DNA of 64,000 nucleotides from a virus (taxonomy: Duplodnaviria; Heunggongvirae; Uroviricota; Caudoviricetes; Demerecviridae): positions 7,425 to 71,424 of IMG/VR virus record IMGVR_UViG_2974599810_000001, one strand, 5' to 3'. Of the stretch, positions 19,987 through 48,113 are shown piece after piece. The notes under the pieces were generated by a model. The model was given only the letters and a program-made list of their open reading frames with translations, was not told the origin of the DNA and made no database searches. The first letter of the stretch is position 1. Every line of letters begins with the position of its first letter. The position numbers and the translations under genes are program-made.

Positions 19987-20069
19987 ATTACCTCCATTAA
20001 GTCTTTTAAATTAACCTAATGTGGATGAATTTTATTATACATATATTATGTACCTTTATACAGAAAAAC

Positions 20070-20098
20070 CCCAGACTACTTATTCAATAGCTGGGGTT
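20070..20098 (-). terminator. rho-independent terminator (CCCCAG..CTGGGG + T-run)
   Basis: Hairpin plus TTTTTCTG on minus strand. Confidence 0.55.
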
Positions 20099-20107
20099 TG
20101 TTATTAA

Positions 20108-20413
20108 TTACAGATCAGGGCGTTCATCTTCGAACGCCACGAAGCCATCAAATTCATCATTTGAAATACCACCAGTATAGGTGATGTCCGCAATCATCGC
20201 TTCCATTTTCCGGATCTCCGAGGTTTTCATGCCTGCTTTGCTATTCTTATAGTATTTGCGAGGGTTCCCACACATCCAACAAGAACAGATGCAAGGAGTA
20301 GTAGTGACAATACCTAACCGCTTAGGGCTTTCTTCATGTGGAAAGACTGTCCAATACTTCTTGCGGTTGTTCTTCACACGTTGCCGGTGATGACGTCTTA
20401 ATGCTCGATCCAC
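20108..20413 (-). CDS. hypothetical Cys-containing protein (101 aa)
   Basis: ORF. Confidence 0.45.
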   Translation of the reverse strand: MDRALRRHHRQRVKNNRKKYWTVFPHEESPKRLGIVTTTPCICSCWMCGNPRKYYKNSKAGMKTSEIRKMEAMIADITYTGGISNDEFDGFVAFEDERPDL

Positions 20414-20494
20414 ACATTTCTCCTAAAACTTGGGAGATAAATGGAGTTTGCTCGACTACCTTGCGTAGTTCGGAGAAACCGTATCCAAACCCCA

Positions 20495-20863
20495 TTACAT
20501 CGCCTGAGTAAATGTACGACTAATAACGTCGTTCTGTTGTTCACGAGTCAGTGCATTAAATCGAACAGCGTAGCCAGAGACACGGATGGTCAACTGAGGA
20601 TATTTTTCAGGATGTTTCTGCGCATCCAAAAGCTGATCACGGCTTAACACATTGACATTTAGGTGCTGACCACCTTCGATTTGAGGGGCGACTTCCACTT
20701 TGACTTCACGGAAGGCTTCGGGATCGAATTGTGGTGTGATACCTTCTAGATCTTCAACTAGAACTTTCTGTTTAAGTTCACCATTGTCGGAGTATAGCTG
20801 AATAATCTGATTTTCATGAACAAGGTTAATTACGCCAGATTTAAGATTTTGATATGCTTTCAT
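20495..20863 (-). CDS. grcA: autonomous glycyl-radical cofactor (GrcA/YfiD-like)
   Basis: C-terminal [29 protein letters not shown] matches the glycyl-radical fingerprint [10 protein letters not shown] of E. coli YfiD; about 122 aa. Confidence 0.8.
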
Positions 20864-20905
20864 TAGATCTCCCCGATGTTAGAATTTGGCTCAGCTCTTT
20901 ATTCT

Positions 20906-21100
20906 TTATACTTTCCCATAGTATACGGAAACTGTCTTACCAGTTTGGTTCATGACGTATGCTACTTCATCTTCTTTTAAAAAGATGGCTTGATCTACTC
21001 CAACTATAGCCAATCTCTTATTTCTAGGATTAAAGCTTACGCTTTTGACCGTATGGATATGTTCACCATTCTTGGCTGACATTATTTTAATTGTTAACAT
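20906..21100 (-). CDS. hypothetical protein (64 aa)
   Basis: ORF. Confidence 0.4.
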   Translation of the reverse strand: MLTIKIMSAKNGEHIHTVKSVSFNPRNKRLAIVGVDQAIFLKEDEVAYVMNQTGKTVSVYYGKV

Positions 21101-21137: not shown

Positions 21138-21213
21138 TGGTAGTTAGTAGTGGATTTGAACCACTGTAGTCGCTCCGTATGAAGGAGGTGCATAACCACT
21201 CTGCCAACTAACT
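21138..21213 (-). tRNA. tRNA anticodon CAU (Met or Ile2-lysidine)
   Basis: Cloverleaf folded by hand: acceptor AGTTAGT/ACTAACT, T-loop TTCAAAT, anticodon loop TTCATAC, CCA encoded. Confidence 0.65.
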
Positions 21214-21309
21214 GTTATGTTTTACTAGACTAAGTAAGTATTCTTTATACTCTTTAGACCAATTAGCTTTTTTAAACTTTCCTGGACGCATAGTCTTAAT
21301 TCCTAAATT

Positions 21310-21386
21310 TGGTACTCCGGGAGGGATTTAAACCCCCGATCTCTCGGTTATCAGCCGAGTGCTTTAGATCGCTAAGCTACCGAAGC
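21310..21386 (-). tRNA. tRNA-Ile (GAU)
   Basis: Acceptor GCTTCGG/CCGGAGT (2 G-U), anticodon arm CTCGG-CTGATAA-CCGAG, T-arm GGGGG-TTTAAAT-CCCTC. Confidence 0.65.
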
Positions 21387-21387
21387 A

Positions 21388-21615
21388 TTAATATTTAATT
21401 GCAGAACGTTTACCATTTCTAGGCGCACCTGGAAGTCGTGCACGTTCTGCCATTCTTCGCTTAATCTTTGAGATATTTTCTAGTATTTGTTCTTCAGGCT
21501 TAATACCTGAAACACTACACCACTGATTACCATCCCATGCGGTAATGATCATAACACCATTACCCATAATCTTTTCTGTGAAAGTAATTCTCATTATAGC
21601 AACTCGTCTAAGCAA
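21388..21615 (-). CDS. hypothetical protein (75 aa)
   Basis: ORF. Confidence 0.4.
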   Translation of the reverse strand: MLRRVAIMRITFTEKIMGNGVMIITAWDGNQWCSVSGIKPEEQILENISKIKRRMAERARLPGAPRNGKRSAIKY

Positions 21616-21887
21616 GAGGTATATTTAAGTTTACCATCTTTATCTACTTTGATTTCGACTTCCGCTCGTGGTACTTGACGAACTACACCATGAATCATCT
21701 TATAGCGAATGCCTTTAGCTGGTTCACGATCTTTTGGAAATACTTGCTTAACCGTTACTACCTTGAAACCCTCACGCGGTGTTAACACTACTACTTGATC
21801 ACCTTCTTTGATTTTCCAAGAAGATGGAAATTCATATGTATAGCGTTGACCACCAGTTTGGAACACAACAGAAAGATAACGTTTCAT
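21594..21887 (-). CDS. hypothetical protein (97 aa)
   Basis: ORF downstream of the promoter at 21918. Confidence 0.45.
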   Translation of the reverse strand: MKRYLSVVFQTGGQRYTYEFPSSWKIKEGDQVVVLTPREGFKVVTVKQVFPKDREPAKGIRYKMIHGVVRQVPRAEVEIKVDKDGKLKYTSCLDELL

Positions 21888-21917
21888 TTGGTTTCCCTCT
21901 CATTAATTTATATAAAT

Positions 21918-21946
21918 ATTATAACAAGAAATAAGAGAGAAAGCAA
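21918..21946 (-). promoter_or_regulatory. conserved early promoter (TTGCTT-17-TATAAT)
   Basis: Hexamers seen. Confidence 0.65.
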
Positions 21947-22136
21947 ATGAATTTTTAATAAAGTTTAGTCACTTCATAAACTATACTACGAGATTCTTTA
22001 TTACGTTGTATTAAATTAGCATATGCTTCTTCAGCTTCATTTTTAGTATTAAAGTCTATAACGTGAGAGGTATTAGCTCTATTTGATTGGCTATACCAGA
22101 TAACTACTAGGAGTTTAAACATACTAGTCCTTAAAT

Positions 22137-22223
22137 TGGTGCTGGGCACAGGATTCGAACCTGCAACGGGATTACTCCTCCTGATTACAAATCAGGTGCA
22201 TTCAACCATTCTGCCAACCCAGC
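22137..22223 (-). tRNA. tRNA with anticodon UGU (Thr) and a 15-nt variable arm carrying a GGA-GTAA-TCC mini-hairpin
   Basis: Acceptor GCTGGGT/GCCCAGC, anticodon arm CCTGA-TTTGTAA-TCAGG, T-arm GCAGG-TTCGAAT-CCTGT, CCA encoded; 87 nt. Confidence 0.55.
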
Positions 22224-22388
22224 AGAACCCGTTATTTCAACGGGATTTCTTTTTCAATAACAGGAGACTTATCAGTCATGACTGCCATTGCCATTTGTTG
22301 TAGAAACTCAAAGGTGAAGGCTACACGTTCTTCACCAATCTCTACTTCTACACGTTTCTTTTGTTTATCGATCTTGACTTTTAGGTTA

Positions 22389-22610
22389 TCAGCCATCTTC
22401 GGGTTCTCGTTGCTGCGCTACTTCTAGCCAGTCTGGTAGAAGAAACTTTGTACGAAATTCTTCGTAAGTTTCTTTGGGATAAAAGCTAAAACCTCCTTTC
22501 TCGTCATTCAGGATAACAGAGCCGTCAGTTTGTTCGTATGCTCGGTATGTTTCTCCAATAACAATAACTCGTTTATCGGTACTTTTATTACGAAATTCAA
22601 AAACGTGCAT
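22389..22610 (-). CDS. hypothetical protein (73 aa)
   Basis: ORF between tRNAs. Confidence 0.4.
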   Translation of the reverse strand: MHVFEFRNKSTDKRVIVIGETYRAYEQTDGSVILNDEKGGFSFYPKETYEEFRTKFLLPDWLEVAQQREPEDG

Positions 22611-22625
22611 AACGTTTCCTTAAAG

Positions 22626-22702
22626 TTGGAGCGGCTAGAGGGAATCGAACCCTACTCAGCGAGGCTTGGAAGGCCTGCGACACAACCCGTGTGCTTAACC
22701 GC
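22626..22702 (-). tRNA. tRNA-Gly (UCC)
   Basis: Acceptor GCGGTTA/TAGCCGC, anticodon loop CTTCCAA, T-arm AGGG-TTCGATT-CCCT. Confidence 0.6.
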
Positions 22703-22710
22703 TTATTGTT

Positions 22711-22786
22711 TGGCTGGAGAAGGAGGAATCGAACCTACCATTAACGGAGTCAAAGGCCGTTGTGCTAACCGTTACACTACTCTCCA
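22711..22786 (-). tRNA. tRNA-Gln (UUG)
   Basis: U1-A72 and G73 (as in E. coli tRNA-Gln); anticodon loop CTTTGAC. Confidence 0.65.
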
Positions 22787-22792
22787 ATTATT

Positions 22793-22868
22793 TGGCTGGA
22801 GTGCCTGGGATCGAACCAGGAACCTTCGGAGTCAGAGGCCGACGATCTGCCAATTGATCTACACTCCA
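22793..22868 (-). tRNA. tRNA-Gln (CUG)
   Basis: Acceptor TGGAGTG/CACTCCA, G73, anticodon loop CTCTGAC, T-arm CCTGG-TTCGATC-CCAGG. Confidence 0.7.
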
Positions 22869-22876
22869 ATAACCCT

Positions 22877-23077
22877 TTACTCTACAGGAACCGTGGCGAT
22901 TGGTTCTGGATCTTCTAAACGTTTGCCTTCATGATCTACTCGAATAACTCCGCATCCTTCGCAAATCACAACAGCACCGTAGCCTTCTTTAACTTCAGCT
23001 TCTGTAATCAAACCAGAAAGATCACCAGTATCTCTGCCCCACATATCAATGGAGCATTGTTTGCAGAAATCAGCCAT
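22877..23077 (-). CDS. zinc-ribbon protein (66 aa; CxxC..CxxC)
   Basis: CKQC and CEGC pairs. Confidence 0.4.
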   Translation of the reverse strand: MADFCKQCSIDMWGRDTGDLSGLITEAEVKEGYGAVVICEGCGVIRVDHEGKRLEDPEPIATVPVE

Positions 23078-23102
23078 ATTTTATTTCCTATTTAAGTTAA
23101 TT

Positions 23103-23179
23103 TGGGGTGGCTAGTGGAATTCGAATCCACATAGGCCTGATTCACAATCAGGATCATTAACCAATTATGATATAGCCAC
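23103..23179 (-). tRNA. tRNA-His (GUG)
   Basis: Perfect acceptor GTGGCTA/TAGCCAC, C73, anticodon loop TTGTGAA, T-arm GTGGA-TTCGAAT-TCCAC; no encoded G-1. Confidence 0.7.
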
Positions 23180-23548
23180 AATTGAAAACTCGCAGGGTTA
23201 GCGAAACCTTCCTCAATTAGCATGTTCTAGAATACTAATCAAGTTATCTCCTATTGCACGCAGCTCAAGACGAGTACGAATTTTCAATTGTGGCGGCTCT
23301 CCGAAACTCTTCTACCCTAGCCTTAGCAGCTTACTCCCGAACGCATGTCGGGGAAGTCTTACTAAGAGCATCAAATAGCACCGTTACACTTTGAGCCATA
23401 GATATATCAAGAAGCAGAAGGACTTGAACCTTCACGAGATAGACCATTTATCTCAGCCGCTTTATGAGGTATGTTGCAAGGAGTGGATGTTCCTTATAAA
23501 CCTTTTAGGCAGCCCCGTCTACCGATTCCGGCATACTTCAAGAATTAT

Positions 23549-23752
23549 TTAAAACTTGTAACCTTCAGGAACCTTATCTTTAACACCGTCATATTTAGCC
23601 TGAATGTAGTAGTCAGGTACATGATCTTTCGGCAGATTCTTATTAGTATCATGAACTTCAGCTCTAGCTTCTTCTTCAGAATCAAAACCACGATACCAGA
23701 TTTCACCACCCCAACCACGTTCGCTTTCGGTATACTTAACAATGTGTTTCAT
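23549..23752 (-). CDS. hypothetical acidic protein (67 aa)
   Basis: RBS AAGGAAAA upstream; protein-like composition. Confidence 0.5.
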   Translation of the reverse strand: MKHIVKYTESERGWGGEIWYRGFDSEEEARAEVHDTNKNLPKDHVPDYYIQAKYDGVKDKVPEGYKF

Positions 23753-23770
23753 AAGGTTTTCCTTATTAGT

Positions 23771-23865
23771 TGGAGGTAGGTAAGGGGATCGAACCCTTAC
23801 ACCGTATCACTACGATCAACCGATTTCAAGTCGGAGTCCAGCGCCAGCCATTGGATTGACCTACC
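23771..23865 (-). tRNA. tRNA-Ser (UGA), class II
   Basis: Acceptor GGTAGGT/ACCTACC, anticodon loop CTTGAAA, long variable arm, T-arm AAGGG-TTCGATC-CCCTT. Confidence 0.6.
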
Positions 23866-23877
23866 ATATAAGTTGTT

Positions 23878-23968
23878 TGGCGGAAGAGGAGAGATTTGAA
23901 CTCTCAAGCCGTTTTACCAGTCAGCCACTTTCCAAGCGGTTTTCGTCACCAATTCGATTTGCTCTTCC
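23878..23968 (-). tRNA. tRNA-Ser (GGA), class II
   Basis: Acceptor GGAAGAG/CTCTTCC, anticodon arm ACCGC-TTGGAAA-GTGGC (like E. coli serV), T-arm GAGAG-TTCAAAT-CTCTC. Confidence 0.6.
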
Positions 23969-24081
23969 AATAATAAGATGATGCCTCTATCACACCAGGC
24001 AGTTACGCCTCGCTGGGATTCGAACCCATTAAAACAGCTCAACCGAGATAGTAGGTTTAATTTACTCTGACCATCAAATTT

Positions 24082-24158
24082 GGTGCGTGACAAGGGATTC
24101 GAACCCTCAAAACCCGACTTCTAAGGACGGTATGTATGCCAATTCCATCAATCACGCA
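24082..24158 (-). tRNA. tRNA with anticodon UAG (Leu) but class-I architecture (5-nt variable loop GTTTT)
   Basis: Acceptor GCGTGAT/GTCACGC, A73, anticodon arm CCGTC-CTTAGAA-GTCGG (one U-U), T-arm GAGGG-TTCGAAT-CCCTT. Confidence 0.55.
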
Positions 24159-24163
24159 TGTTT

Positions 24164-24242
24164 GGTGGAGAATAACGGAATCGAACCGTTCTGATGTCCT
24201 CGGTGCAAGCGAGGTGTCCACTCCATGCAGACCCATTCCCCA
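24164..24242 (-). tRNA. tRNA-Ala (UGC)
   Basis: Acceptor GGGGAAT/ATTCTCC with G3-U70, anticodon arm CCTCG-CTTGCAC-CGAGG, T-arm AACGG-TTCGATT-CCGTT. Confidence 0.65.
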
Positions 24243-24479
24243 AATTCTTTAGTTTACTAAGGCTATTAGCTCGGCGTAACTACAGCACCTTCGCTTCAAG
24301 CGGAAGGAACCGCGTCATCTCGCAAACCCGATACACTATTCAGTTGCCGCTGAATCTAGTGGACTAATCTAGAACTTCTCCCGAATCGTAGGGATCGTGC
24401 TTTTTGGCAGCCAGTCCTAGGTCGAGCTAATACCTTAGTGAACTATGATGAGGATTTCTCCTCATCAATTTATATAAAT

Positions 24480-24509
24480 ATTATAACAAGAAATTAAGCA
24501 TCAAGCAAG
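24480..24509 (-). promoter_or_regulatory. conserved early promoter driving the ncRNA plus tRNA cluster (Ala..Ser) leftward
   Basis: TTGCTT-18-TATAAT on minus strand overlapping the 3' end of gene 24501..24869; leader forms the hairpin TGATGAGGA-gaaa-TCCTCATCA. Confidence 0.55.
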
Positions 24510-24869
24510 TACATTTTTAGCGATTTCTTGTAGTTCCTTTACATCACGAACGTAAAGGTAATCAGAGCTTCCAGAGTGCATACTTTGCATAACCACACCT
24601 TCATCTGGTGCATTATCCTTCAGAGTAATTCCTAACCAGAACTCGGCAAAACTAGGTGTTACCTCACCTTGACTTGCCTTGAACACATCATATTCTGTAA
24701 TTTCTTGACCAGTAGATAAACCCAAATAGGCAGAACTAAGATCAATCTCTTTATGAGACTCATAAAATTCCGACAGATCTTTTTCCATATCCCAGCCATG
24801 CTGTAACGCGAACTCCATTGTCACATGACCGAAATAACCTTGAATCTTGCTTGATAATTGCATTTGCAA
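24501..24869 (-). CDS. hypothetical protein (122 aa)
   Basis: ORF. Confidence 0.5.
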   Translation of the reverse strand: MQMQLSSKIQGYFGHVTMEFALQHGWDMEKDLSEFYESHKEIDLSSAYLGLSTGQEITEYDVFKASQGEVTPSFAEFWLGITLKDNAPDEGVVMQSMHSGSSDYLYVRDVKELQEIAKNVLA

Positions 24870-24888
24870 TTCCTTACTTTGAGTTAAT

Positions 24889-24962
24889 TGGTACTCGGTG
24901 ATAGAATCGAACTATCGCAACCGCCGTGTAAAGACGGGGTTCTCCCATTAAACTAACCGAGC
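24889..24962 (-). tRNA. tRNA-Val (UAC)
   Basis: Acceptor GCTCGGT/ACCGAGT, anticodon arm CCGTC-TTTACAC-GGCGG, T-arm ATAG-TTCGATT-CTAT. Confidence 0.6.
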
Positions 24963-24966
24963 AATT

Positions 24967-25045
24967 TGGTAGACCGCCTGGGACTCGAACCCAGAACCTT
25001 CCGATTAAAAGTCGGATGCTACTAAACCTATTGAGCTAGCGATCT
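24967..25045 (-). tRNA. tRNA-Lys (UUU)
   Basis: Anticodon arm TCCGA-CTTTTAA-TCGGA, T-arm CTGGG-TTCGAGT-CCCAG. Confidence 0.6.
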
Positions 25046-25234
25046 ATTAGTAACCATTATATACTTCTTTAATAGAGTGAACTTTCAAGTAAGGGTGATT
25101 AGTATTAAATTCTACCATTACTTCATCCCAATTTTTACCATAATGAGCAAGTAAGGATTTTGATGTATTCTTACCTGAACGTTTGTCACTTACTACTAAT
25201 CGAAATACTTTCATTTCGAAATCCTCTATTAAAA

Positions 25235-25312
25235 TGGAAGCGGGTGTAGGAATCGAACCTACCTCTTTCTAGCTTATGAGACTAGCGATCTCTACCAGAG
25301 ATCTAACCCGCA
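25235..25312 (-). tRNA. tRNA anticodon CAU (Met/Ile2) with a U1-U72 mismatch and a 6-bp D-stem
   Basis: Anticodon arm CTAGT-CTCATAA-GCTAG, T-arm GTAGG-TTCGATT-CCTAC, CCA encoded. Confidence 0.55.
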
Positions 25313-25318
25313 ATTGTT

Positions 25319-25394
25319 TGGTCAGTGCGGCAGGACTCGAACCTGCGACCCGAAGCATCCAAGGCTCCCACGCTACCAACTGCGCTACGCACTG
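25319..25394 (-). tRNA. tRNA-Pro (UGG)
   Basis: Acceptor CAGTGCG/CGCACTG, anticodon arm GGAGC-CTTGGAT-GCTTC, T-arm GCAGG-TTCGAGT-CCTGC. Confidence 0.65.
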
Positions 25395-25424
25395 TTAATT
25401 TTGTTAACTCACTTTATAAAATAT

Positions 25425-25453
25425 ATTATACAGATAATTAAGCAGAATAGCAA
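25425..25453 (-). promoter_or_regulatory. conserved early promoter driving the tRNA-Pro/Met/Lys/Val cluster
   Basis: TTGCTA-17-TATAAT on minus strand. Confidence 0.6.
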
Positions 25454-25599
25454 ATGAATTTTTAATAAATTTACTTATTGTGTAGGCCACCTGGAGGCTA
25501 TCAACCCCACGGCTGACAAAGAAGTTTGCGAGACCTCTCTTAAATGCCAGAATAGACCCGCCGATCTACCGGAACCTACATAATAAGTAAACTTTATAG

Positions 25600-25725
25600 T
25601 GTCATTCTAGACAGGACTCGAACCTGTTATCACTTGTGCGGACTTACGAGAACCATTCTTTCACTCGAATCGAACGAGCTTCTGCCCTCGCCAAGCTGGT
25701 TTCCCCATCAACCACGCTAGAATGT
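25600..25725 (-). ncRNA. tRNA-like element of about 121 nt (ATTCTAG..CTAGAAT acceptor-like pairing, D-arm-like and canonical T-arm ACAGG-TTCGAGT-CCTGT) with about 45 extra nt in the anticodon region
   Basis: Folded by hand; an internal second T-arm-like hairpin GCTCG-TTCGATT-CGAGT; not a canonical tRNA. Confidence 0.35.
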
Positions 25726-25845
25726 TTGATTGTTTTCAGTGCAAGAGTCCGAGTCTTGGACACGACCGCTTCGCAAGTACATAGGCAGCTTATCATGAGT
25801 CGGCACTTCCGAATTGCTAGCTCCGTGTTCTGCACTGAAATTTTG

Positions 25846-26193
25846 TTAATTTAATAGTAAAGTACGATCTACTTCACCATTAATTGTTCGGCATTCTTCT
25901 GGGATTGCTGGGGTGGCCTTGTATTCCCACCACTCAGAACCATCATATTCACCACGTTCTAACCAAGTCCCATCAGTAAACCACACGTTACCATAAAGCA
26001 ATTGCCCACCATAACCAGAATCATATTTAAAGTCTAGATTATTTAGAAAATCTTCAATATCTTTTTCTGTATAACCTACTGGTAATACCCAAACTTCTTT
26101 GTTCCCATAATAACCGAATTCTATCTTAATACACTTAACTTCAGACTTAGTATTCTTTAGGGCAAGTAACAATTCTTCTTTAGCATTAATCAT
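25846..26193 (-). CDS. hypothetical protein (115 aa)
   Basis: ORF. Confidence 0.5.
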   Translation of the reverse strand: MINAKEELLLALKNTKSEVKCIKIEFGYYGNKEVWVLPVGYTEKDIEDFLNNLDFKYDSGYGGQLLYGNVWFTDGTWLERGEYDGSEWWEYKATPAIPEECRTINGEVDRTLLLN

Positions 26194-26219
26194 AGCATAT
26201 TTCCCGTGCTAGTTTAATT

Positions 26220-26296
26220 TGGCGCGACCGATGGGATTCGAACCCACATTCTCTCCCGTGACAGGGGAGTACCATTACCAAGCCAGCCCCGGTCGC
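26220..26296 (-). tRNA. tRNA-Asp (GUC)
   Basis: Acceptor GCGACCG/CGGTCGC, G73, anticodon arm CTCCC-CTGTCAC-GGGAG, T-arm ATGGG-TTCGAAT-CCCAT. Confidence 0.7.
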
Positions 26297-26305
26297 ATAA
26301 TTCAT

Positions 26306-26491
26306 TTACTCAGCTTTGAGTTTTTCAATAGCTGCATTAAGTTCCTTAAGAAACTCTTTTCGTACATTAAGACGATTAAGACTTACTAGTATATCATGTT
26401 TAAGTTCTTCGATGTATTTCTTCTCAACTTCAATATTGTTGATAGTGCTATCACGATGAACTTCTAGCTGCGCAATTACATTCTTGGACAT
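26306..26491 (-). CDS. small coiled-coil protein (61 aa)
   Basis: ORF. Confidence 0.35.
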   Translation of the reverse strand: MSKNVIAQLEVHRDSTINNIEVEKKYIEELKHDILVSLNRLNVRKEFLKELNAAIEKLKAE

Positions 26492-26593
26492 GCTTGTTTC
26501 CTCAGTTATTAATGAAAATGGTATCTGTGTCTGAATTCGATGTCAGCAATGATAGCTGGTTGGCTACCGGTTTACTTAACTCTACACAGAATT

Positions 26594-26676
26594 TGGCGGG
26601 CCGTGTAGGATTCGAACCTACGTTGTCTTTCGACATGGATTAACAGTCCACCGCCAAACCGCTTGGCTAACGACCC
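26594..26676 (-). tRNA. tRNA-Asn (GUU) with a 13-nt variable arm containing a GTC-GAAA-GAC tetraloop hairpin
   Basis: Acceptor GGGTCGT/ACGGCCC, anticodon arm GTGGA-CTGTTAA-TCCAT, T-arm GTAGG-TTCGAAT-CCTAC; 83 nt. Confidence 0.55.
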
Positions 26677-26828
26677 TAAATTTATATTGCTGACTAGGAT
26701 TTTCACCTAGACGGAGTTAGCACCGTAGCGTGTAGCGGCATACCTCTCCAAACCGTGCCTCATCTTTCAATTACGGAGACAGTGTTCCTACGCGTGCCTG
26801 AATTGATTTAACAATTCTTTCAGCAAAT

Positions 26829-26904
26829 TGGACGACCGCATGAGATTTGAACTCACATAAAAAGGATTTGCAATCCTTCGCCTAAGCCATTCAGCCAACG
26901 GTCG
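26829..26904 (-). tRNA. tRNA-Cys (GCA)
   Basis: U73 discriminator, anticodon arm AAGGA-TTGCAAA-TCCTT, T-arm GTGAG-TTCAAAT-CTCAT. Confidence 0.65.
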
Positions 26905-26952
26905 ATTTATCTTGTTCTGTCATGTTGCTTCTCCAGTTCAATTTATGTAATT

Positions 26953-26981
26953 ATTATACAGAACTTTTGGAAACTAAGCAA
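26953..26981 (-). promoter_or_regulatory. conserved early promoter driving the tRNA-Cys/Asn/Asp cluster
   Basis: TTGCTT-17-TATAAT on minus strand. Confidence 0.6.
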
Positions 26982-27261
26982 CTACATTTTTTAAGAATTT
27001 GATGCCTTTCTTTTTCTTCTTATATTTCCATGTTAAGGGATTCTGTCGATTATGAACGCTTGAGATCTTCGTCTCGTCAAAGTTCTTCAATATCATGTAA
27101 TCACAAGATAATTGTTCTAGTGGAATGTGATCACCGTCAAAAGCGTATACATAAGGCTGTTGACTAGCACGATAATGATAGACTTTGTTAATTCTACGTT
27201 TCAGCGACTTATCAGCGCAGTAAATAAAGAAGTTTTCAGGATGCATCAGCAGCTCCTTCAA
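26974..27261 (-). CDS. hypothetical basic protein (95 aa)
   Basis: ORF. Confidence 0.45.
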   Translation of the reverse strand: MKELLMHPENFFIYCADKSLKRRINKVYHYRASQQPYVYAFDGDHIPLEQLSCDYMILKNFDETKISSVHNRQNPLTWKYKKKKKGIKFLKNVVA

Positions 27262-27263
27262 TT

Positions 27264-27338
27264 TGGTGCACCCTGTTCGAATCGAACGAACCTCTCAAGC
27301 TCTTCAGGCAAGCGCTAATCCATCTCAGCTAAAGGTGC
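27264..27338 (-). tRNA. tRNA-Phe-like (GAA); anticodon stem contains two U-U mismatches
   Basis: Acceptor GCACCTT/AGGGTGC, A73, anticodon loop CTGAAGA, T-arm GTTCG-TTCGATT-CGAAC. Confidence 0.45.
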
Positions 27339-27344
27339 AAATTT

Positions 27345-27421
27345 TGGCAAACCTACTAGGACTCGAACCTAGACCGTACGGTTTTGGAGACCGACATGCT
27401 GTCCAGTAACACTCTAGGAAT
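27345..27421 (-). tRNA. tRNA-Trp-like (CCA); acceptor stem has two U-U mismatches (possible pseudogene)
   Basis: Anticodon arm TCGGT-CTCCAAA-ACCGT, D-arm GTGT..GCAT, T-arm CTAGG-TTCGAGT-CCTAG, G73, CCA encoded. Confidence 0.45.
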
Positions 27422-27429
27422 GCAGAAAT

Positions 27430-27506
27430 TGGCGTCCTGTGCGGGGATCGAACCCGCAAATCCTACCTTGAAAGGGTAGTGACTTTACCAGTTTGTCTAA
27501 CAGGAC
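27430..27506 (-). tRNA. tRNA-Glu (UUC)
   Basis: Acceptor GTCCTGT/ACAGGAC, anticodon arm CTACC-CTTTCAA-GGTAG, T-arm GCGGG-TTCGATC-CCCGC. Confidence 0.7.
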
Positions 27507-27512
27507 TTAAAT

Positions 27513-27600
27513 TGGTGGGGAAAGATGGAGTCGAACCACCCGAGTCGCAATGACAACTGATTTACAGTCAGCTCTGCTACCACTTACAGAATATTTCCCC
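27513..27600 (-). tRNA. tRNA-Tyr (GUA), class II
   Basis: Acceptor GGGGAAA/TTTCCCC, A73, anticodon arm GCTGA-CTGTAAA-TCAGT, long variable arm, T-arm GGTGG-TTCGACT-CCATC. Confidence 0.65.
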
Positions 27601-27731
27601 ATATTTAGAAGTATTCAAAAAATTCTAATTTAAACACTTTTAAATATGTTTCCAAATTAGATAAATATTATACCAAGTTTTAAGGCACTGAGCAAGTCAA
27701 ATTTTAAAGAACTTGCTCAGTGCTGTATTAG

Positions 27732-28007
27732 TTAGTCGAACTTAGGAGTGACAGTTAAGGAAAACGGAAGTTCGAAAACTTCTTCCCCCTCATCACTAAC
27801 AGTAATTACACGACCTTTAAGTTCAGACATTGAAATATCAATATCAGCTTTTGCATCTGGAGCCATGCCAGCTTCAATACATTTAGCTTTAATTTCCGGC
27901 AGAAGTTCTACATCGTAGAAATAAAGCCATTCAATCTCACCTTCCCAGCCTTCCCAGGATTTACAGATTGCACTTTCAATACCAGCTGCTATAACACGAT
28001 TTTGCAT
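27732..28007 (-). CDS. hypothetical acidic protein (91 aa)
   Basis: ORF downstream of the promoter at 28038. Confidence 0.45.
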   Translation of the reverse strand: MQNRVIAAGIESAICKSWEGWEGEIEWLYFYDVELLPEIKAKCIEAGMAPDAKADIDISMSELKGRVITVSDEGEEVFELPFSLTVTPKFD

Positions 28008-28037
28008 TCGTTAACTCCTTCATCAATTTATATAACT

Positions 28038-28067
28038 ATTATATCAGAAATTTAAAGCAAAAGGCAA
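28038..28067 (-). promoter_or_regulatory. early promoter (TTGCCT-18-TATAAT)
   Basis: Hexamers seen. Confidence 0.5.
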
Positions 28068-28097
28068 GTACATTTTTAAAAATTCTGTTTGGAGGAG

Positions 28098-28304
28098 CTA
28101 AACTCCAGATTCTTCAGCCAAGTCTAGACTAATAAGAGATATAGCCATAATTGCCGCTCCATGCTCTTTTTCTCCAGTCTCTTTAGCTAGAGTTATAATG
28201 TCAAGAAATTGCTTATGAAAATCTGCAACCTCTTGAGTTATACCTGCCTCAGCAATCATGCCTTTAAGCATGAAACGTTGCGCTGTAATTTCAGGATTAG
28301 CCAT
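28098..28304 (-). CDS. hypothetical protein (68 aa)
   Basis: ORF. Confidence 0.4.
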   Translation of the reverse strand: MANPEITAQRFMLKGMIAEAGITQEVADFHKQFLDIITLAKETGEKEHGAAIMAISLISLDLAEESGV

Positions 28305-28479
28305 ATTGTTTCTCCAGTTTCATCTTTAATAGTCTACAAATAAAATCAATGTCTTCATCCGTGCCTAGATCTCTGTCTTCAAGAGTTGCCTTGAAGTTTT
28401 TAGTCAATTCCATGAGAATAACTTCTCTAGAACGACGTGTTGGCGGAGGTGGATGTCTATACATCTTATTTCCTTAATT

Positions 28480-28556
28480 TGGTAGGGGTGGTGGGATTCG
28501 AACCCACAAAACCTGAATTTTAAGTCCAGTACCTATGCCAATTCGATTACACCCCC
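28480..28556 (-). tRNA. tRNA with anticodon UAA (Leu) but class-I architecture (variable loop GTTTT)
   Basis: Acceptor GGGGGTG/CACCCCT, A73, anticodon arm CTGGA-CTTAAAA-TTCAG, T-arm GTGGG-TTCGAAT-CCCAC. Confidence 0.55.
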
Positions 28557-28563
28557 GTGTAGT

Positions 28564-28752
28564 TTAGTCAATTACTTTTGAGGCTTCAAGGTAGTCGATA
28601 TAGTGTACGTTTTCTACCGTAATCATATAATCCGCCACTTTATCCATAGCTTGGGCTTCAGAGGTAGCTCTGGCTAACCTATATCCTTTTTTATATTCAT
28701 CCGGGTATTCTCTATCTTGAATAAACACAACATAAACTATATATAGATCCAT
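28564..28752 (-). CDS. hypothetical protein (62 aa)
   Basis: ORF. Confidence 0.4.
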   Translation of the reverse strand: MDLYIVYVVFIQDREYPDEYKKGYRLARATSEAQAMDKVADYMITVENVHYIDYLEASKVID

Positions 28753-28770
28753 TTGTGACCTCTATTTAAT

Positions 28771-28848
28771 TGGTGGCTCCCCGAGGATTCGAACCTACGT
28801 ACCTTCCGGTTATGAGCCGGGTGCTCATACCATATGAGCTTGAGAACC
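28771..28848 (-). tRNA. tRNA anticodon CAU (third CAU species; T-stem imperfect)
   Basis: Acceptor GGTTCTC/GGGAGCC, D-arm GCTCATA..TATGAGC, anticodon arm CCCGG-CTCATAA-CCGG. Confidence 0.45.
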
Positions 28849-28854
28849 AAAATC

Positions 28855-28943
28855 TGGCGGAAGAAGTGGGAATCGAACCCACAAGGCTATATTTCAAACC
28901 GACAGATTAGCAATCTGCTGCAATACCGTTATGCTATTCTTCC
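28855..28943 (-). tRNA. tRNA-Ser (GCU), class II
   Basis: Acceptor GGAAGAA/TTCTTCC, G73, anticodon arm GCAGA-TTGCTAA-TCTGT, 19-nt variable arm, T-arm GTGGG-TTCGATT-CCCAC. Confidence 0.65.
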
Positions 28944-28964
28944 GAATTTATAAGATATATTATA

Positions 28965-29483
28965 TTAGAAATTTAGCTTCATAGCAAGAAAATTTTTCAA
29001 GTTTTCGGTAGACATCTCATCCACATCTACAGGAGAAACAAAGCCGTTTAATTTTCTAGCAAATTTTTCACCATCGGGATCATTGTCCCCGACAGCTACC
29101 AATTTAAAAGGTAGTAATTTCAGTTGCTTTAATAACGCTTTTCCTGGAGAAGAACCCAACATTGCCAGGGCTGGATAACCCGCATTATGTAACGCAACTG
29201 CCTTAAATACAGATTCAGCAATCAATACTACTTTTTCATCTCCATTGAGAGTTTCTAGTCCCCATACACACTGTGTAGTAGAGTAGGTAAAATATTTAGC
29301 CTCAAAGGGGCATTTACCATGCCCTTTTGGAGCAGAAGGATTATACGTCTGATAGCCCCTCAACATCCCAGAGAAGTCATACAATGGGACTGTTAGCCAC
29401 CCTTCCGGGCTTAACCAGCAATGATATTTATCTGTATCAAATCCTCTAGATAAGAGGTGCTGTGTTAGCTCATCAACATTCAT
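28965..29483 (-). CDS. Toprim-domain protein (about 173 aa from the MNVDEL start)
   Basis: LVAVGDNDPDGEKFA (Toprim DxD) and AESVFKAVAL motifs; internal Met with RBS GAGAGAGGAA; start coordinate +/-1. Confidence 0.5.
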   Translation of the reverse strand: MNVDELTQHLLSRGFDTDKYHCWLSPEGWLTVPLYDFSGMLRGYQTYNPSAPKGHGKCPFEAKYFTYSTTQCVWGLETLNGDEKVVLIAESVFKAVALHNAGYPALAMLGSSPGKALLKQLKLLPFKLVAVGDNDPDGEKFARKLNGFVSPVDVDEMSTENLKNFLAMKLNF

Positions 29484-29514
29484 ATCTGATTCCTCTCTCA
29501 AATTTATAGATATA

Positions 29515-29543
29515 TTATACAGAGAATTTAGCATTCAAGCAAT
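29515..29543 (-). promoter_or_regulatory. conserved early promoter (TTGCTT-17-TATAAT)
   Basis: Hexamers seen. Confidence 0.6.
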
Positions 29544-29660
29544 CAAAATTTTTAATTTTTTAGAGAAAAATCATAGGGCACTTAAGGGTAGCGGATAAGT
29601 GGTGAGGACCAAAATTTGTGACCCCACTAAAAATCCGGGGGCAATTTTTAAAGACCCCTT

Positions 29661-29689
29661 GACATTTTCGCTGGGGTAGTGTAAAGTAT
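29661..29689 (+). promoter_or_regulatory. plus-strand sigma70 promoter (TTGACA-17-TAAAGT) for the low-complexity cassette
   Basis: Consensus -35 with a plausible -10; followed by AGGAGGTG RBS and ATG at 29750. Confidence 0.55.
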
Positions 29690-29749
29690 ATGTTATGGAT
29701 GAGTGATCAAAGAGACACACATTTTCTATATACTAGGAGGTGTCAAAAA

Positions 29750-30742
29750 ATGACAGAAGAAGTAGCTAAGAGTCCTGAGACCGTCGCTAGCGTTGCAGCA
29801 GAACTGCACCGTCACGAGGAATCAGATAAGAAAAAGTGGGAGAAGGTCAGAGCCTACGAAGAGAAACATCGTGAACACGATGAAGATGATGAAGAAGATG
29901 ACGATGATGAGTATTGTCATAAATATGGAAAACGTAAAATGCAAGAACCAGTAAACGTATTCACTAGTGGCTTCCCTGGCCTAATGGGTGGTTACCCAGC
30001 AAACGCAGGTGCTTTTGGTGGTGAAGGTATGGGTCTATTCGGAGCTATCCTAATCGGTGCTCTATTAACAGGCGGATTCGGTGGTTTCGGTGGATTCGGT
30101 GGACGTGGTGTAGTTGGTGATGGTACCGCAGTTGATGCAGTACTTCAGAACCAAGATACCGCTAGTATTCTAGCAGCTATTAACACTACTCGTACAGAAG
30201 CTAATCAGGGTACTGGAGCTGTTTTAAGCGCAGTTAACAATGGTTTTAGCCAGACATCCCAAAACCAGAGCCGTGATACTCAGTCTGTACTAACTACGAT
30301 CTATGGTACAGGTGCTAATCTGTCTAATCAGATCTGTCAGGAAACTCGCAACGTTATTCAGGGTCAGTTCGATCTTTCTCGCCAGATTGATCAATCTTTC
30401 GCAGCTAACCAGATAGCTCGTGCGCAAGATAAGTTTGATTCTGCACAGATCGCTTTCCAGCAGACTTTACAAACTAATAACCAGTTTGCCGCTGTTCAGG
30501 CTCAGATGTGTGCTAACCAGAACTCTCTGGAACGTCAGATCGCTGAATGTTGCTGTGAACTTCAGACTGCGATCGCTGGTGTAACTACTGCGCGTATCCA
30601 GGATGAGTTAGACGCATGTCGCCTACGTGAAGCAATCGCTGCGGGTAGCGGTGCTAACGGTCAGGTAATTAATCAAATCGCTTTAAGTCTTGGTGCTATC
30701 ACTCAGACTCTGGCTGGTCTGCAGGCTAAACTGCCGGCTTAA
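29750..30742 (+). CDS. low-complexity protein (330 aa): acidic N-terminus (DEDDEEDDDDE), glycine-zipper/TM-like segment (GLFGAILIGALLTGGFGGFGGFGG), long Q/N/A/S/T-rich C-terminal region
   Basis: ATG at 29750 with AGGAGGTG RBS, in frame with listed ORF 29690..; host-optimal codons (CTG, CGT, GGT, CAG). Confidence 0.6.
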   Translation: MTEEVAKSPETVASVAAELHRHEESDKKKWEKVRAYEEKHREHDEDDEEDDDDEYCHKYGKRKMQEPVNVFTSGFPGLMGGYPANAGAFGGEGMGLFGAILIGALLTGGFGGFGGFGGRGVVGDGTAVDAVLQNQDTASILAAINTTRTEANQGTGAVLSAVNNGFSQTSQNQSRDTQSVLTTIYGTGANLSNQICQETRNVIQGQFDLSRQIDQSFAANQIARAQDKFDSAQIAFQQTLQTNNQFAAVQAQMCANQNSLERQIAECCCELQTAIAGVTTARIQDELDACRLREAIAAGSGANGQVINQIALSLGAITQTLAGLQAKLPA

Positions 30743-30763
30743 TATTAAGGGGAGGAGCCCATT

Positions 30764-31192
30764 ATGAGTAAATATGGTTTTGTAAATAACGGACTTAATC
30801 AAAGTATGGGCTCCCAGCAGCCCATTCCGGGTCTAGATAACCCCTACTTACAACAATTGCAACAGCGTTTAGCAGAAGCGCAACAGATGCAGCAACAACT
30901 CCAGCAAAACCCTGGAAGTGTGAGTCCTATGCAAATGATGCAGCAAATGAATGGGCAGTCGCAAATGCCCCAACAAATGCAGCAACAGATGCAGCAACAG
31001 ATGCCGCAGCAGCAAGTTCAGCAACAAACCCAACAACCGCAGGTTTCTGCGGAAGGACAGGCAGTACTAGCCCTTTTCGAAGACTTCGCAAAGACAGAGG
31101 ATGGGAAGCAGCTTGTATCACTTATGGGTAAGTTTAATAGCTTCTGCCAAAGCCAAGTTGCAAAAGCTCAAAATGGTGGTAATAACTCCTAA
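30764..31192 (+). CDS. polyQ/M-rich protein (142 aa; QQMQQQMQQQMPQQQVQQQTQQPQ)
   Basis: RBS GGGGAGGAG upstream; extreme Q content. Confidence 0.55.
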   Translation: MSKYGFVNNGLNQSMGSQQPIPGLDNPYLQQLQQRLAEAQQMQQQLQQNPGSVSPMQMMQQMNGQSQMPQQMQQQMQQQMPQQQVQQQTQQPQVSAEGQAVLALFEDFAKTEDGKQLVSLMGKFNSFCQSQVAKAQNGGNNS

Positions 31193-31201
31193 GGAGGAAT
31201 T

Positions 31202-31396
31202 ATGTGTTGCAGAAAATCTGTTTCGTGCTGCCCAATGCCTGTAGCACGTTGTTGCTCTTCAGCAATGTTTACACAAATACCGGCGTTCAATCCGTTTGCC
31301 TTTAAGCCTACTCTTATCCTGCCCCCTAGAGTAGATTTTCAGTCAAGGTTGGCCTCCCGTATGGGTGGTTGCTGTAATAAGAGTATATGGTTCTAA
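31202..31396 (+). CDS. small Cys-rich protein (64 aa; four CC doublets)
   Basis: RBS AAGGAGGAA upstream; MCCRKSVSCCPMPVARCCSS..GGCCNK. Confidence 0.45.
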   Translation: MCCRKSVSCCPMPVARCCSSAMFTQIPAFNPFAFKPTLILPPRVDFQSRLASRMGGCCNKSIWF

Positions 31397-31409
31397 AGAA
31401 CCAAACAAT

Positions 31410-31445
31410 AAAGCCCCTAGTCGAAAGACTTAGGGGCTTTTCTTT
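31410..31445 (+). terminator. rho-independent terminator (AAGCCCCTAG..CTAGGGGCTT + TTTCTTTT)
   Basis: Perfect 10-bp stem plus T-run closing the plus-strand cassette. Confidence 0.7.
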
Positions 31446-31460
31446 TATCTTAAATACAGA

Positions 31461-31495
31461 AAAACCCTGCGCTCTTCAGGGAACGCAGGGCTTAC
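31461..31495 (-). terminator. rho-independent terminator for the minus-strand SPFH gene (GCCCTGCG..CGCAGGG + T-run)
   Basis: Hairpin plus TTTTTC on minus strand; faces the plus-strand terminator. Confidence 0.6.
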
Positions 31496-31516
31496 TTCAG
31501 ATGTTACATGCGGGTA

Positions 31517-32464
31517 TTATTTATTACGCATATCCATGATCATTTGACCATCGTAGCCAGTACCTACCACAGTCTGGGGTACACCACCTTGATATTTCTG
31601 AGCACGAATCATTTCGACTTCCAGTTGCTTCCAGCGAATCATCTCAGGAGTAATGGTACGTTGTAATGCGGCGTTAGCTTCAGCTTCTTTCTTAGCTGCG
31701 TATAGTTTAGCATCTGCGTCACGTTCATTGGCAATAGCTTGGTTGTTGCGGGCTTCACGATCTGCTTCTGCTTGTTTAACTTTTTGCTGTGCTTCCTGCT
31801 CAACACGAGCTAATTCAGCTTTAGCAGCATTAACCTGTTCTTCACGAACTTTGGTATTCTGTACCTGTTCCATGATTACCGGTGGCAAAGTAATATCCTG
31901 AAGGAACACCTGCTTAACTGTGTAACCATATGGGCGTGCGTACTCTTCAACTTCCTGTTGAATTGCAGTTTGCAATTGAGCCTGAATTTTAGCATCAAAC
32001 AAATCTTGTGCTTTAGGTACAGACTTACCAAACTCACGAATAGTAGACAGTAATTTTTCAGTTACATATTTGTCTAACGCTTGATCCTGAGTACCTGCAT
32101 TAATACGGTTAATCGGTGCCTTAGAACCATCAAACTGCAACATAACAGTCAGGTCAACAGTGGATTTAAACTTATCCTGACTAGGAACCTGAAGTTTATC
32201 TAATTTTAGAGCAATATCTTTTGTACTAAAAGTATCGAAAGAAGCAAAAGGATTTACAATATGAAAGCCGGGTAATACTGGATTAGGGTCTACTTTACCC
32301 AGGAAAGTCTGGGTTTTAACAGTACCGTCTTGAACAACAGTATAGGAGTTAAGGGCCAGAACTAAACCTACCAAACCAACTGCAGCACCAATACCCCAAC
32401 GTTTGATATTACGCATCAATTTTTGCTCATAAGTCAGTTCTTTAGTGTTTTTAGTAGCAAACAT
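31517..32464 (-). CDS. SPFH/band-7 (prohibitin/HflK/C-like) membrane protein
   Basis: N-terminal TM, then YTVVQDGTV..FLGKV..LPGFHI..PF band-7 core, long coiled-coil C-terminus. Confidence 0.7.
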   Translation of the reverse strand: MFATKNTKELTYEQKLMRNIKRWGIGAAVGLVGLVLALNSYTVVQDGTVKTQTFLGKVDPNPVLPGFHIVNPFASFDTFSTKDIALKLDKLQVPSQDKFKSTVDLTVMLQFDGSKAPINRINAGTQDQALDKYVTEKLLSTIREFGKSVPKAQDLFDAKIQAQLQTAIQQEVEEYARPYGYTVKQVFLQDITLPPVIMEQVQNTKVREEQVNAAKAELARVEQEAQQKVKQAEADREARNNQAIANERDADAKLYAAKKEAEANAALQRTITPEMIRWKQLEVEMIRAQKYQGGVPQTVVGTGYDGQMIMDMRNK

Positions 32465-32498
32465 ATATTTCCTTTGTTTTAGTTACAGTTAATAAAAT

Positions 32499-32573
32499 TG
32501 GCCGAGGTGACAGGATTCGAACCTGCATAAAGGAATTTAGAAGACTCCTGCCTCTCCCTTAGACTACACCCCG
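32499..32573 (-). tRNA. tRNA-Arg (UCU)
   Basis: Acceptor CGGGGTG/CACCTCG, G73, anticodon arm GGAGT-CTTCTAA-ATTCC, T-arm GCAGG-TTCGAAT-CCTGT. Confidence 0.65.
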
Positions 32574-44752: not shown

Positions 44753-45505
44753 TTACACCTTCCCCATGTCTTTAAAAATATCATAGAATGCTTTAGACTC
44801 AACAGAACGAACGTTATCAATCAATTCGATCATTGAGAATGGGGCATTTTCGTATTTTTCATAGACTTCCATAAGGAGTGCTAGACCTGAGTCACCTTTA
44901 ATGTCTTTCTGAGCTATATCTCCGCAGATAATTAAACGGCAGTCTTGTCCTACACGAGTTAGGAGACAAATCATTGCCTCAACGGAAATATTCTGAGCTT
45001 CATCGACAATTACATAGGAGTTGTTGAAAGTTCTGCCACGAGCATGTTCGACAGCCAAAAATTTAATTTTTTGACGTTCGACATATCCTTTATACGCATG
45101 ATCGCCGATGGCCCATTTCATACCATCAGCTATTGGCTCCAACCAAGGCTCTAGCTTTTCCGCTAGATCACCAGGAAGCATACCAAGAGACTTACCTAGA
45201 GGTTCATTAGGACGTACGAGGATCACTTGCTCAATATCTGAGTGAATGTCTACGAGTTCCTGAGCTGCAAGAACGGACGGAATAAAGGTTTTACCAGTAC
45301 CTGGCTCACCGATACCCACAGTCACTGTGTTGTTCTTGATCATATTGATATATGATTTTTGCTCGCGGTTTTTACCTACTAGGGATTTAGCAACTGGGTT
45401 AGCGTAATCAGTAGAAAAATCAGCCTGAATTACGTTGTTCTCATATTTGTTGCCACGCTTTCTTGAACCATTGCGGTTCTCTCTTTTTTGACGTGCTTTT
45501 CCCAT
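44753..45505 (-). CDS. phoH: PhoH-like ATPase
   Basis: Walker A GIGEPGTGKTF; Walker B VIVDEAQN; start at M4 with GGAG RBS. Confidence 0.85.
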   Translation of the reverse strand: MGKARQKRENRNGSRKRGNKYENNVIQADFSTDYANPVAKSLVGKNREQKSYINMIKNNTVTVGIGEPGTGKTFIPSVLAAQELVDIHSDIEQVILVRPNEPLGKSLGMLPGDLAEKLEPWLEPIADGMKWAIGDHAYKGYVERQKIKFLAVEHARGRTFNNSYVIVDEAQNISVEAMICLLTRVGQDCRLIICGDIAQKDIKGDSGLALLMEVYEKYENAPFSMIELIDNVRSVESKAFYDIFKDMGKV

Positions 45506-45578
45506 AAATAACACTCCTATAGTGTACTTCGCTAACAGAGGATCAACAAAAAGATCTTGTTTATCAACTTACAAATAT

Positions 45579-47831: not shown

Positions 47832-48113
47832 ATGAGCGAATTGCTTCCTAAAGTAGATGTCTCCCATCTTGGAGAGCCTAGTGAAGAACGTAAGGCTCTA
47901 GATTGGTTGGGCGGATTTGATTATCGTCGTGTTGTTGCAACATGGAATGATAAGAAAGTTAAGAAGTTTCGGGTACATTATGTAGGTAAAGACAAGTGGC
48001 TCTGGATTGATTATGAAGAATCGAAGGGGTCTACTAAGGCTGTGAAAATTTATCGTATGTATGGGTATTATTATGCTCACTGTGATAAGAATGAATTTAC
48101 AGTACAGAACTAA
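47832..48113 (+). CDS. hypothetical protein (93 aa)
   Basis: RBS GAGAGGAG upstream. Confidence 0.55.
   Translation: MSELLPKVDVSHLGEPSEERKALDWLGGFDYRRVVATWNDKKVKKFRVHYVGKDKWLWIDYEESKGSTKAVKIYRMYGYYYAHCDKNEFTVQN

Follow-up and report, generated by a model that had tools for sequence, protein, structure and literature searches.

Why would a T5-like phage encode both a small glycyl-radical protein and an anaerobic ribonucleotide reductase (RNR), and which activases would serve them? The question is raised by a window of 64,000 nucleotides, i.e., the whole stretch of DNA analyzed here, whose origin could be established precisely. With a 4-kb query spanning the grcA-like gene, Salmonella phage L6jm (MN956514.1; Demerecviridae, Tequintavirus; 118,452 bp) was matched at 100% identity, and the complete window matches positions 7425..71424 of the L6jm record exactly. 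The gene is ORF58 of this record, where it is annotated as a "putative acetyltransferase-like protein"; the labels given to it in other T5-like records are "pyruvate formate-lyase," "glycyl radical cofactor," and "autonomous glycyl radical cofactor." The gene, its signals, and the end of the unit in which it lies are as follows.

20495..20863, minus strand: grcA-like gene, homologous to T5.056; 122 aa from ATG to stop, of the autonomous glycyl-radical "spare part" type
20869..20874, minus strand: Shine-Dalgarno-like GGGGAG (ribosome-binding site [RBS]), 6 nt 5' of the ATG of the grcA-like gene, as read from the sequence
20498..20698, minus strand: C-terminal glycyl-radical domain, residues 56-122, corresponding to YfiD 61-127 and PflB 693-759
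20555..20584, minus strand: 10-residue glycyl-radical motif, residues 94-103, as read from the sequence
20573..20575, minus strand: codon of Gly97, the predicted radical site
20108..20413, minus strand: 101-aa ORF (homologue of T5.055) with a GTG start and an AGGAG RBS, the next conserved ORF 3' of the grcA-like gene
~20062..20099, minus strand: GC-rich hairpin with a T-run (aaaccccag...ctggggttttt), a likely intrinsic terminator

Like the stand-alone proteins of the GrcA/YfiD class (~120-130 aa), the reading frame has its own RBS and stop codon and lacks an in-frame extension at its 5' side. Its place on the minus strand is the distal end of a tRNA cluster, for which ARAGORN predicted 22 tRNAs at 21138..32573 (minus strand); tRNA-Met is followed by a 64-aa ORF (20906..21100), the grcA-like gene, the T5.055-like 101-aa ORF, and the hairpin. 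The hairpin is kept in four T5-like phages (L6jm, T5, KKP_3831, and SHSML-45), and the T5 record has a rho-independent terminator annotated at the equivalent position; the hairpin and its T-run likely close a unit consisting of the tRNA cluster, the 64-aa ORF, the grcA-like gene, and the T5.055-like ORF. None of the 22 tRNA genes predicted by ARAGORN in this region is annotated in the GenBank record of L6jm. The orthologue in phage T5 is T5.056 (YP_006884.1; "putative acetyltransferase-related protein"; InterPro IPR001150, the glycine-radical domain), which likewise has 122 aa and is found at the same distal end of the tRNA cluster, with the T5.055 homologue and the terminator coming next. In T5, tRNA-Met is located directly 5' of T5.056, whereas in L6jm the 64-aa ORF lies between tRNA-Met and the gene.

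The first-pass annotation, made from the letters of the sequence, had taken the 122-aa product for a phage-encoded GrcA-like spare-part protein. This was borne out, far beyond chance and for a gene on the minus strand, by matches to Pfam PF01228 Gly_radical (E = 3.7e-18; 66 bits versus a cut-off of 22) and to the NMR structure of E. coli GrcA (PDB 6owr; E = 1.4e-30), and matches were also obtained for the 62 C-terminal residues of E. coli PflB (E = 5e-27) and, over the full length, for phrog_1209 (8e-48). The score against the GrcA equivalog of NCBIfam, TIGR04365 (spare_glycyl), was 121 bits and hence below the cut-off of 170, with a match confined to residues 50-122, because the N-terminal half is divergent. 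The C-terminal ~65 residues are homologous to positions 693-759 of pyruvate formate-lyase (PFL), including the RVSGYAV loop; the identity amounts to 80% between residues 62-122 and the C terminus of PflB (699-759) and to 74% between residues 51-122 and residues 54-127 of E. coli GrcA. The last residues, TFTQAM, are nearer to those of PflB (TFTQSM) than to those of GrcA (TFTESL). The 10-residue motif is identical to that of E. coli GrcA/YfiD (P68066; 6OWR), likewise a stand-alone protein of ~14 kDa. The protein had been said to end with this motif, which is correct with respect to its presence but only approximately so with respect to its position, since 19 residues follow. Its conservation, on which the initial proposal had been made to depend, was confirmed by an alignment of 22 T5-like, jumbo-phage, T4-like, and bacterial homologues, in which residues 88-103 are invariant. 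The heptapeptide RVSGYAV is present exactly in the phage protein, and this 7-mer alone is a competent substrate of PFL-AE (PMC10665898). Judging from the identity of the substrate peptide, we infer that host PflA would install the radical on Gly97.

The fold of the C-terminal domain is settled by homology at the sequence level. An AlphaFold model calculated from the 22-sequence alignment, with a pLDDT of only 67, places in the C-terminal half a helix at residues 75-83, a hairpin (92-95/98-101) with Gly97 at its tip, and a second helix at residues 107-117, as expected. For the N terminus it predicts a beta meander with low confidence, whereas residues 1-60 of YfiD, whose domain limits were adopted here from PMC8683613, are disordered according to NMR. 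The N-terminal half of the phage protein (residues 1-55) is divergent and can barely be aligned with that of E. coli GrcA; it contains a 13-residue insertion of the T5 type and has the MKAYQ start and scattered further positions in common with the T-even protein. Residues 1-60 of YfiD contribute to the binding of cleaved PFL and to efficient installation of the radical (PMC8683613). Because residues 1-55 have diverged and this half matters in YfiD, the PFL-binding properties of the phage protein may differ from those of YfiD.

The first issue to be settled is whether the gene has any role in the phage at all, since it might be a fragment recently captured from a host. Its 3' half has 75-77% DNA identity to E. 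coli grcA and pflB, and an exchange of this gene between phages and hosts does occur: in the T-even phages, the last 60 aa are identical to those of E. coli GrcA, and 185 bp at the 3' end of T2 vs.6 have 97% DNA identity to E. coli grcA, in combination with a phage-specific 5' half, which looks like a recent gene conversion or exchange between host and phage. The T5 type, however, is an older and independent lineage. A tblastn search recovered the protein in 1586 phage records, comprising about 430 with an identity of at least 90%, all of them T5-like among the matches listed, and about 1000 with roughly 50% identity, of which those sampled were mostly T4-like (gene vs.6). The gene keeps its frame, start codon, RBS, and position. 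L6jm and T5.056 differ at 36 nucleotides, which change 28 codons synonymously and 6 non-synonymously; the six exchanged amino acids are all within residues 1-55, i.e., the N-terminal half, and for residues 56-122 we counted 16 synonymous codon differences and not a single non-synonymous one. The same substitution pattern was found for two further T5-like phages, and, measured by these codon differences, purifying selection on the glycyl-radical domain is strong in this group. With synonymous changes so clearly in excess and the gene so widely maintained, a passively acquired host fragment is scarcely credible as an explanation.

A functional precedent is provided by phage T4, whose Y06I protein (vs.6) is a phage-encoded spare part, too, and is 52.7% identical to the L6jm protein over 129 alignment columns and the full length, including the common MKAYQ start. 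According to the account of Wagner et al. (2001) in PMC8683613, PFL activase introduces a glycyl radical into both E. coli YfiD and T4 Y06I, and the two proteins reconstitute PFL that has been fragmented by oxygen, and these two proteins are still the only validated spare parts (PMC8683613). The mechanism of E. coli GrcA/YfiD, in which PFL-AE installs the radical and the small protein docks on oxygen-cleaved PFL, is presumed to be the same for the phage protein, and a restoration of PFL by the latter is extrapolated from YfiD and Y06I. The presence of an exact activase substrate peptide, together with an N-terminal half that has diverged from bacterial GrcA, could also indicate a decoy or modulator that soaks up PFL activase or caps host PFL and thereby redirects the flux of pyruvate. 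This is improbable, inasmuch as every PFL-like residue of the catalytic loop and helix has been kept under purifying selection, which is needed by a replacement part rather than by a mere binder, and the T4 homologue restores activity.

The second glycyl-radical protein of the phage is encoded on the opposite strand about 25 kb away. The respective features are listed below together with the genes in the vicinity.

45858..47732, plus strand: nrdD, class III RNR of 624 aa without an ATP-cone (Pfam NRDD 4.4e-172, Gly_radical 9e-23; PRK09263)
47637..47639, plus strand: codon of Gly594, the glycyl radical site of NrdD
44753..45514, minus strand: PhoH-like ATPase, between nrdA and nrdD
47832..48113, plus strand: 93-aa ORF (ORF102), directly 3' of nrdD
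48509..49324, plus strand: Sir2-like protein, about 0.8 kb 3' of nrdD

The assignment of this gene as nrdD, already made by the first-pass annotation, is correct (Pfam, E = 4.4e-172; NCBIfam PRK09263, 842 bits versus a cut-off of 657). Aligned with E. coli NrdD over 599 residues, the phage enzyme shows 54% identity, and the ATP-cone is missing from its N terminus. Its residues C91, M300, C302, N319, and G594 correspond to C175, M382, C384, N405, and G681 of E. coli, and the Zn-ribbon cysteines C557/560/575/578 correspond to C644/647/662/665. All sequence features expected for a class III NrdD of the formate type are therefore present, i.e., scores above the cut-offs for the NRDD fold, the Cys/Met/Cys set, RVCGY, and the Zn-ribbon. 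We take the Cys/Met/Cys set to be the mark of formate-dependent NrdD, as in the enzymes of E. coli and T4, and because this catalytic set is kept, the phage NrdD is classified from its residues as the formate-dependent type. Formate is the reductant of the characterized enzymes of the E. coli/T4 type (PMC4493059).

Two observations concern the surroundings and the variability of nrdD. The location of the PhoH gene between nrdA and nrdD has previously been noted for T5, SPC35, and EPS7 (PMC3653736). The NrdD of the T5 reference genome (574 aa) has an in-frame deletion of 50 aa compared with that of L6jm, which removes a conserved stretch, ..RASVSLGYIGCHE.., that E. coli NrdD has as well, and the enzyme of laboratory T5 may be impaired by this deletion.

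Which activases could act on these two proteins was addressed by a search of the complete L6jm genome, translated in six frames into 1060 stop-to-stop segments of at least 40 aa, using phmmer without filters and E. coli NrdG, T4 NrdG, phage A4 NrdG, and E. coli PflA as queries. No credible homologue of NrdG or PflA was detected in the 118 kb of L6jm (best E = 0.026), and the same six-frame procedure detected none in the complete type genome of T5 (122 kb). As positive controls, the NrdG proteins of the T4, A4, AsFcp_4, and Muenster loci were recovered at 1e-41 to 1e-47. Homologues of NrdG were found in 2273 phage records, and none of 40 evenly spaced rows sampled from these was T5-like, compared with at least 430 T5-like records in the collection. 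T4 encodes its own NrdG, whereas the T5-like phages do not.

The earlier statement that no radical-SAM activase is visible in the window was thus correct and holds for the whole genome of L6jm, and the nrdG gene that was to be sought in the remainder of the genome is encoded neither there (118,452 bp) nor in T5. The accompanying statement that the window contains no activase ORF with CxxxCxxC needs to be qualified: the activase is indeed absent, but the string itself occurs, namely as CICSCWMC in the 101-aa ORF, which is not a radical-SAM protein; its only other occurrence within the window is a 57-aa segment between stop codons that runs antisense to an annotated gene. In the six frames of L6jm, CxxxCxxC was confined to short segments, none of them an ORF as large as an activase. 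Of the two sources of activation that had been proposed, a gene outside the window is excluded by the search of L6jm, and dependence on host NrdG and PflA gained support as the reading that is left: since neither the L6jm nor the T5 genome holds an activase, both phage proteins would rely on host PflA and NrdG.

That the phage nevertheless encodes a non-canonical activase missed by sequence searches, e.g., the 101-aa CICSCWMC protein or another hypothetical protein, is very unlikely. The 101-aa ORF combines CxxxCxxC with weak matches to the NCBIfam radical-SAM models HxsC (E = 0.013) and TIGR04190 (E = 0.11), and we considered it as a minimal radical-SAM enzyme. It is, however, far too short in comparison with NrdG (154-159 aa), the smallest activase compared; the "GG" stretch that resembles a SAM motif is deleted in the homologues of T5 and SHSML-45; and the protein has no match in Pfam and belongs to phrog_4499 (function unknown). 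The radical-SAM matches are probably spurious. The second candidate, the 93-aa ORF102 next to nrdD, gave the best match to E. coli NrdG (E = 0.026), extending over 22 residues, and could have been a degraded nrdG. It contains a single cysteine, is not matched by the NrdG of T4 or A4, has no Pfam or NCBIfam match, and is replaced at the same position of T5 by the unrelated T5.100, and it was rejected accordingly.

The ORF directly 3' of nrdD is thus exchanged between the two phages (93 aa, phrog_7953, in L6jm; 126 aa, T5.100, in T5), and this variable cassette is the place where other phages carry nrdG. The 57-codon segment (30847..31017, minus strand) is very rich in cysteine (CCCGICCCICCCICWGICDC...) and antisense to ORF78 of L6jm, and T5 has a similar one; such a segment is probably an artefact of composition, caused by the gene on the sense strand.

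Whether host NrdG would accept the phage NrdD can be judged to some degree from the C terminus of the latter. The 31-residue radical segment of the L6jm enzyme is identical to that of E. coli NrdD at 25 of 31 positions, compared with 18 of 31 for T4, and this closer similarity lends weak support to an activation by host NrdG. The idea that the NrdD C terminus as a whole is unusually host-like, which would have been an argument for the use of host NrdG, had to be abandoned, because over the last ~105 residues L6jm (52%) and T4 (50%) are equally distant from E. coli. Since this larger part is no closer than that of T4, the sequence alone does not prove compatibility with host NrdG.

Taken together, the most plausible answer, to which we assign a probability of roughly 0.7, is that the phage gene provides a PFL spare part for host PflB that is activated by host PflA, while the phage NrdD is activated by host NrdG. 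The setting would be an anaerobic or microaerobic, oxygen-stressed cell of Salmonella or E. coli, in which the phage protein would dock on host PflB that has been cleaved by oxygen at Gly734, and PflA of the host would place the radical on Gly97 and thus bring PFL activity back. T5-like phages degrade the host DNA and shut off host expression (as annotated for T5 A1), so that neither new PflB nor an induction of host grcA could be expected, and it is for this reason, i.e., the inability of a shut-off host to replace PflB or to induce grcA, that a phage-encoded spare part would be useful. Restored PFL would supply acetyl-CoA, ATP, and formate, the last being the reductant for a formate-type RNR such as the phage NrdD, and the latter would have to be activated by host NrdG that is already present in anaerobically grown cells.

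A possible connection between the two phage proteins is suggested by gene order in other phages. Six further phage lineages or phage-like contigs that we looked at have a grcA-like gene next to RNR genes, and these are unrelated to each other, i.e., Asteriusvirus, Alcyoneusvirus, Aeromonas Angelvirus, a Vibrio T4-like phage, and two metagenomic contigs. The order is nrdD-grcA-DUF4326-nrdG in the Escherichia jumbo phage A4, nrdD-grcA-x-nrdG in Klebsiella phage Muenster and a 39.5-kb metagenomic contig, nrdD-nrdG-vs.6-nrdC-nrdH in Aeromonas phage AsFcp_4, and nrdA-nrdB-grcA in Vibrio phage D479; in a 330-kb contig, nrdD, nrdG, and grcA follow each other in this order within 4 kb. No RNR gene was located near the grcA-like gene in the context of P0070, which looks bacterial. 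In L6jm, the distance of 25 kb between the grcA-like gene and nrdD means that there is no linkage with the class III RNR, and the two genes are not adjacent in T4 either, but both genes are present in T4-like and T5-like phages.

The occurrence of grcA-like genes in or beside the nrdD-nrdG operons of several phages could be taken to mean that the small protein is a spare part for the oxygen-cleaved C terminus of the phage's own NrdD rather than for host PFL, and spare parts for other glycyl-radical enzymes have been the subject of speculation (PMC8683613). We regard this as quite unlikely for L6jm. The domain is of the PFL type throughout, with the 80% identity to PflB 699-759 described above, it has just RV.GY in common with the radical loop of NrdD (RRVCGYLGNPGARPFN), and the C-terminal Zn-ribbon of NrdD is absent from the small protein; furthermore, it is PFL that is rescued by T4 Y06I. 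The simplest reading of the gene order is that the phage GrcA-like proteins would belong to an anaerobic dNTP-supply module instead of acting as a general "energy" gene; host PFL would be kept alive after the shut-off to deliver formate to the phage NrdD. This reading is tentative, and we consider the odds to be somewhat against it. It is proposed because grcA-like genes recur by nrdD/nrdG or nrdAB and because grcA-like genes and nrdD co-occur in T4- and T5-like phages, and formate would be the connecting metabolite because it is consumed by NrdD of the formate type and produced by PFL. Neither the idea of formate supply nor phage grcA as an auxiliary metabolic gene was found in the searchable literature, and a search for T5-like phages in combination with glycyl radical, PFL, nrdG, or anaerobic RNR retrieved nothing.

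The gene, its functional class, and the pattern of nrdD without nrdG are all already known, and in this respect L6jm only adds another T5-like phage to what has been described. In hundreds of T5-like genomes the gene carries an annotation as pyruvate formate-lyase or glycyl-radical cofactor, and the lack of nrdG in T5-type phages has been covered by published RNR surveys. The RNRdb of 2009 contained 30 NrdD but 21 NrdG proteins of phages (PMC2795772), and many phages carry nrdD alone, i.e., without nrdG, alongside nrdAB (Dwivedi et al. 2013); L6jm is a further instance of such phages and does not differ from them. Of use are the genome-wide negative result for activases in L6jm and T5 and, as a modest new aspect, the observed linkage of grcA with RNR genes, which makes the supply of formate to a phage class III RNR a testable hypothesis. 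With two phage-made glycyl-radical proteins and no activase of its own, the phage would be wholly reliant on host PflA and NrdG. If the concept of a dNTP module is correct, the T5-like phages would be its extreme case, with both radical proteins made by the phage and both activases borrowed. The prediction is that the anaerobic fitness of T5-like phages is sensitive to the pflA and nrdG genotype of the host, which may be relevant to phage therapy in the gut.

The small ORFs next to the grcA-like gene deserve a separate comment. The basic N terminus and the motif TTTPCICSCWMCGNPRK of the 101-aa ORF are identical in the four T5-like phages, and its C terminus is variable due to in-frame indels; only the last 55 codons of this ORF are annotated in the L6jm record. 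One further ORF is annotated in between.

20334..20495, minus strand: 53-aa ORF (L6jm ORF57, phrog_31464), whose start overlaps the stop codon of the grcA-like gene (TAATG)

The 53-aa ORF overlaps the T5.055-like ORF in another frame. The substitutions in the overlap among the four phages are silent in the frame of T5.055 and change amino acids in that of the 53-aa ORF, and because they are silent in the former frame only, the 53-aa ORF may not be a real gene. The 81-nt spacer between the grcA-like gene and the T5.055-like ORF is unusually conserved.
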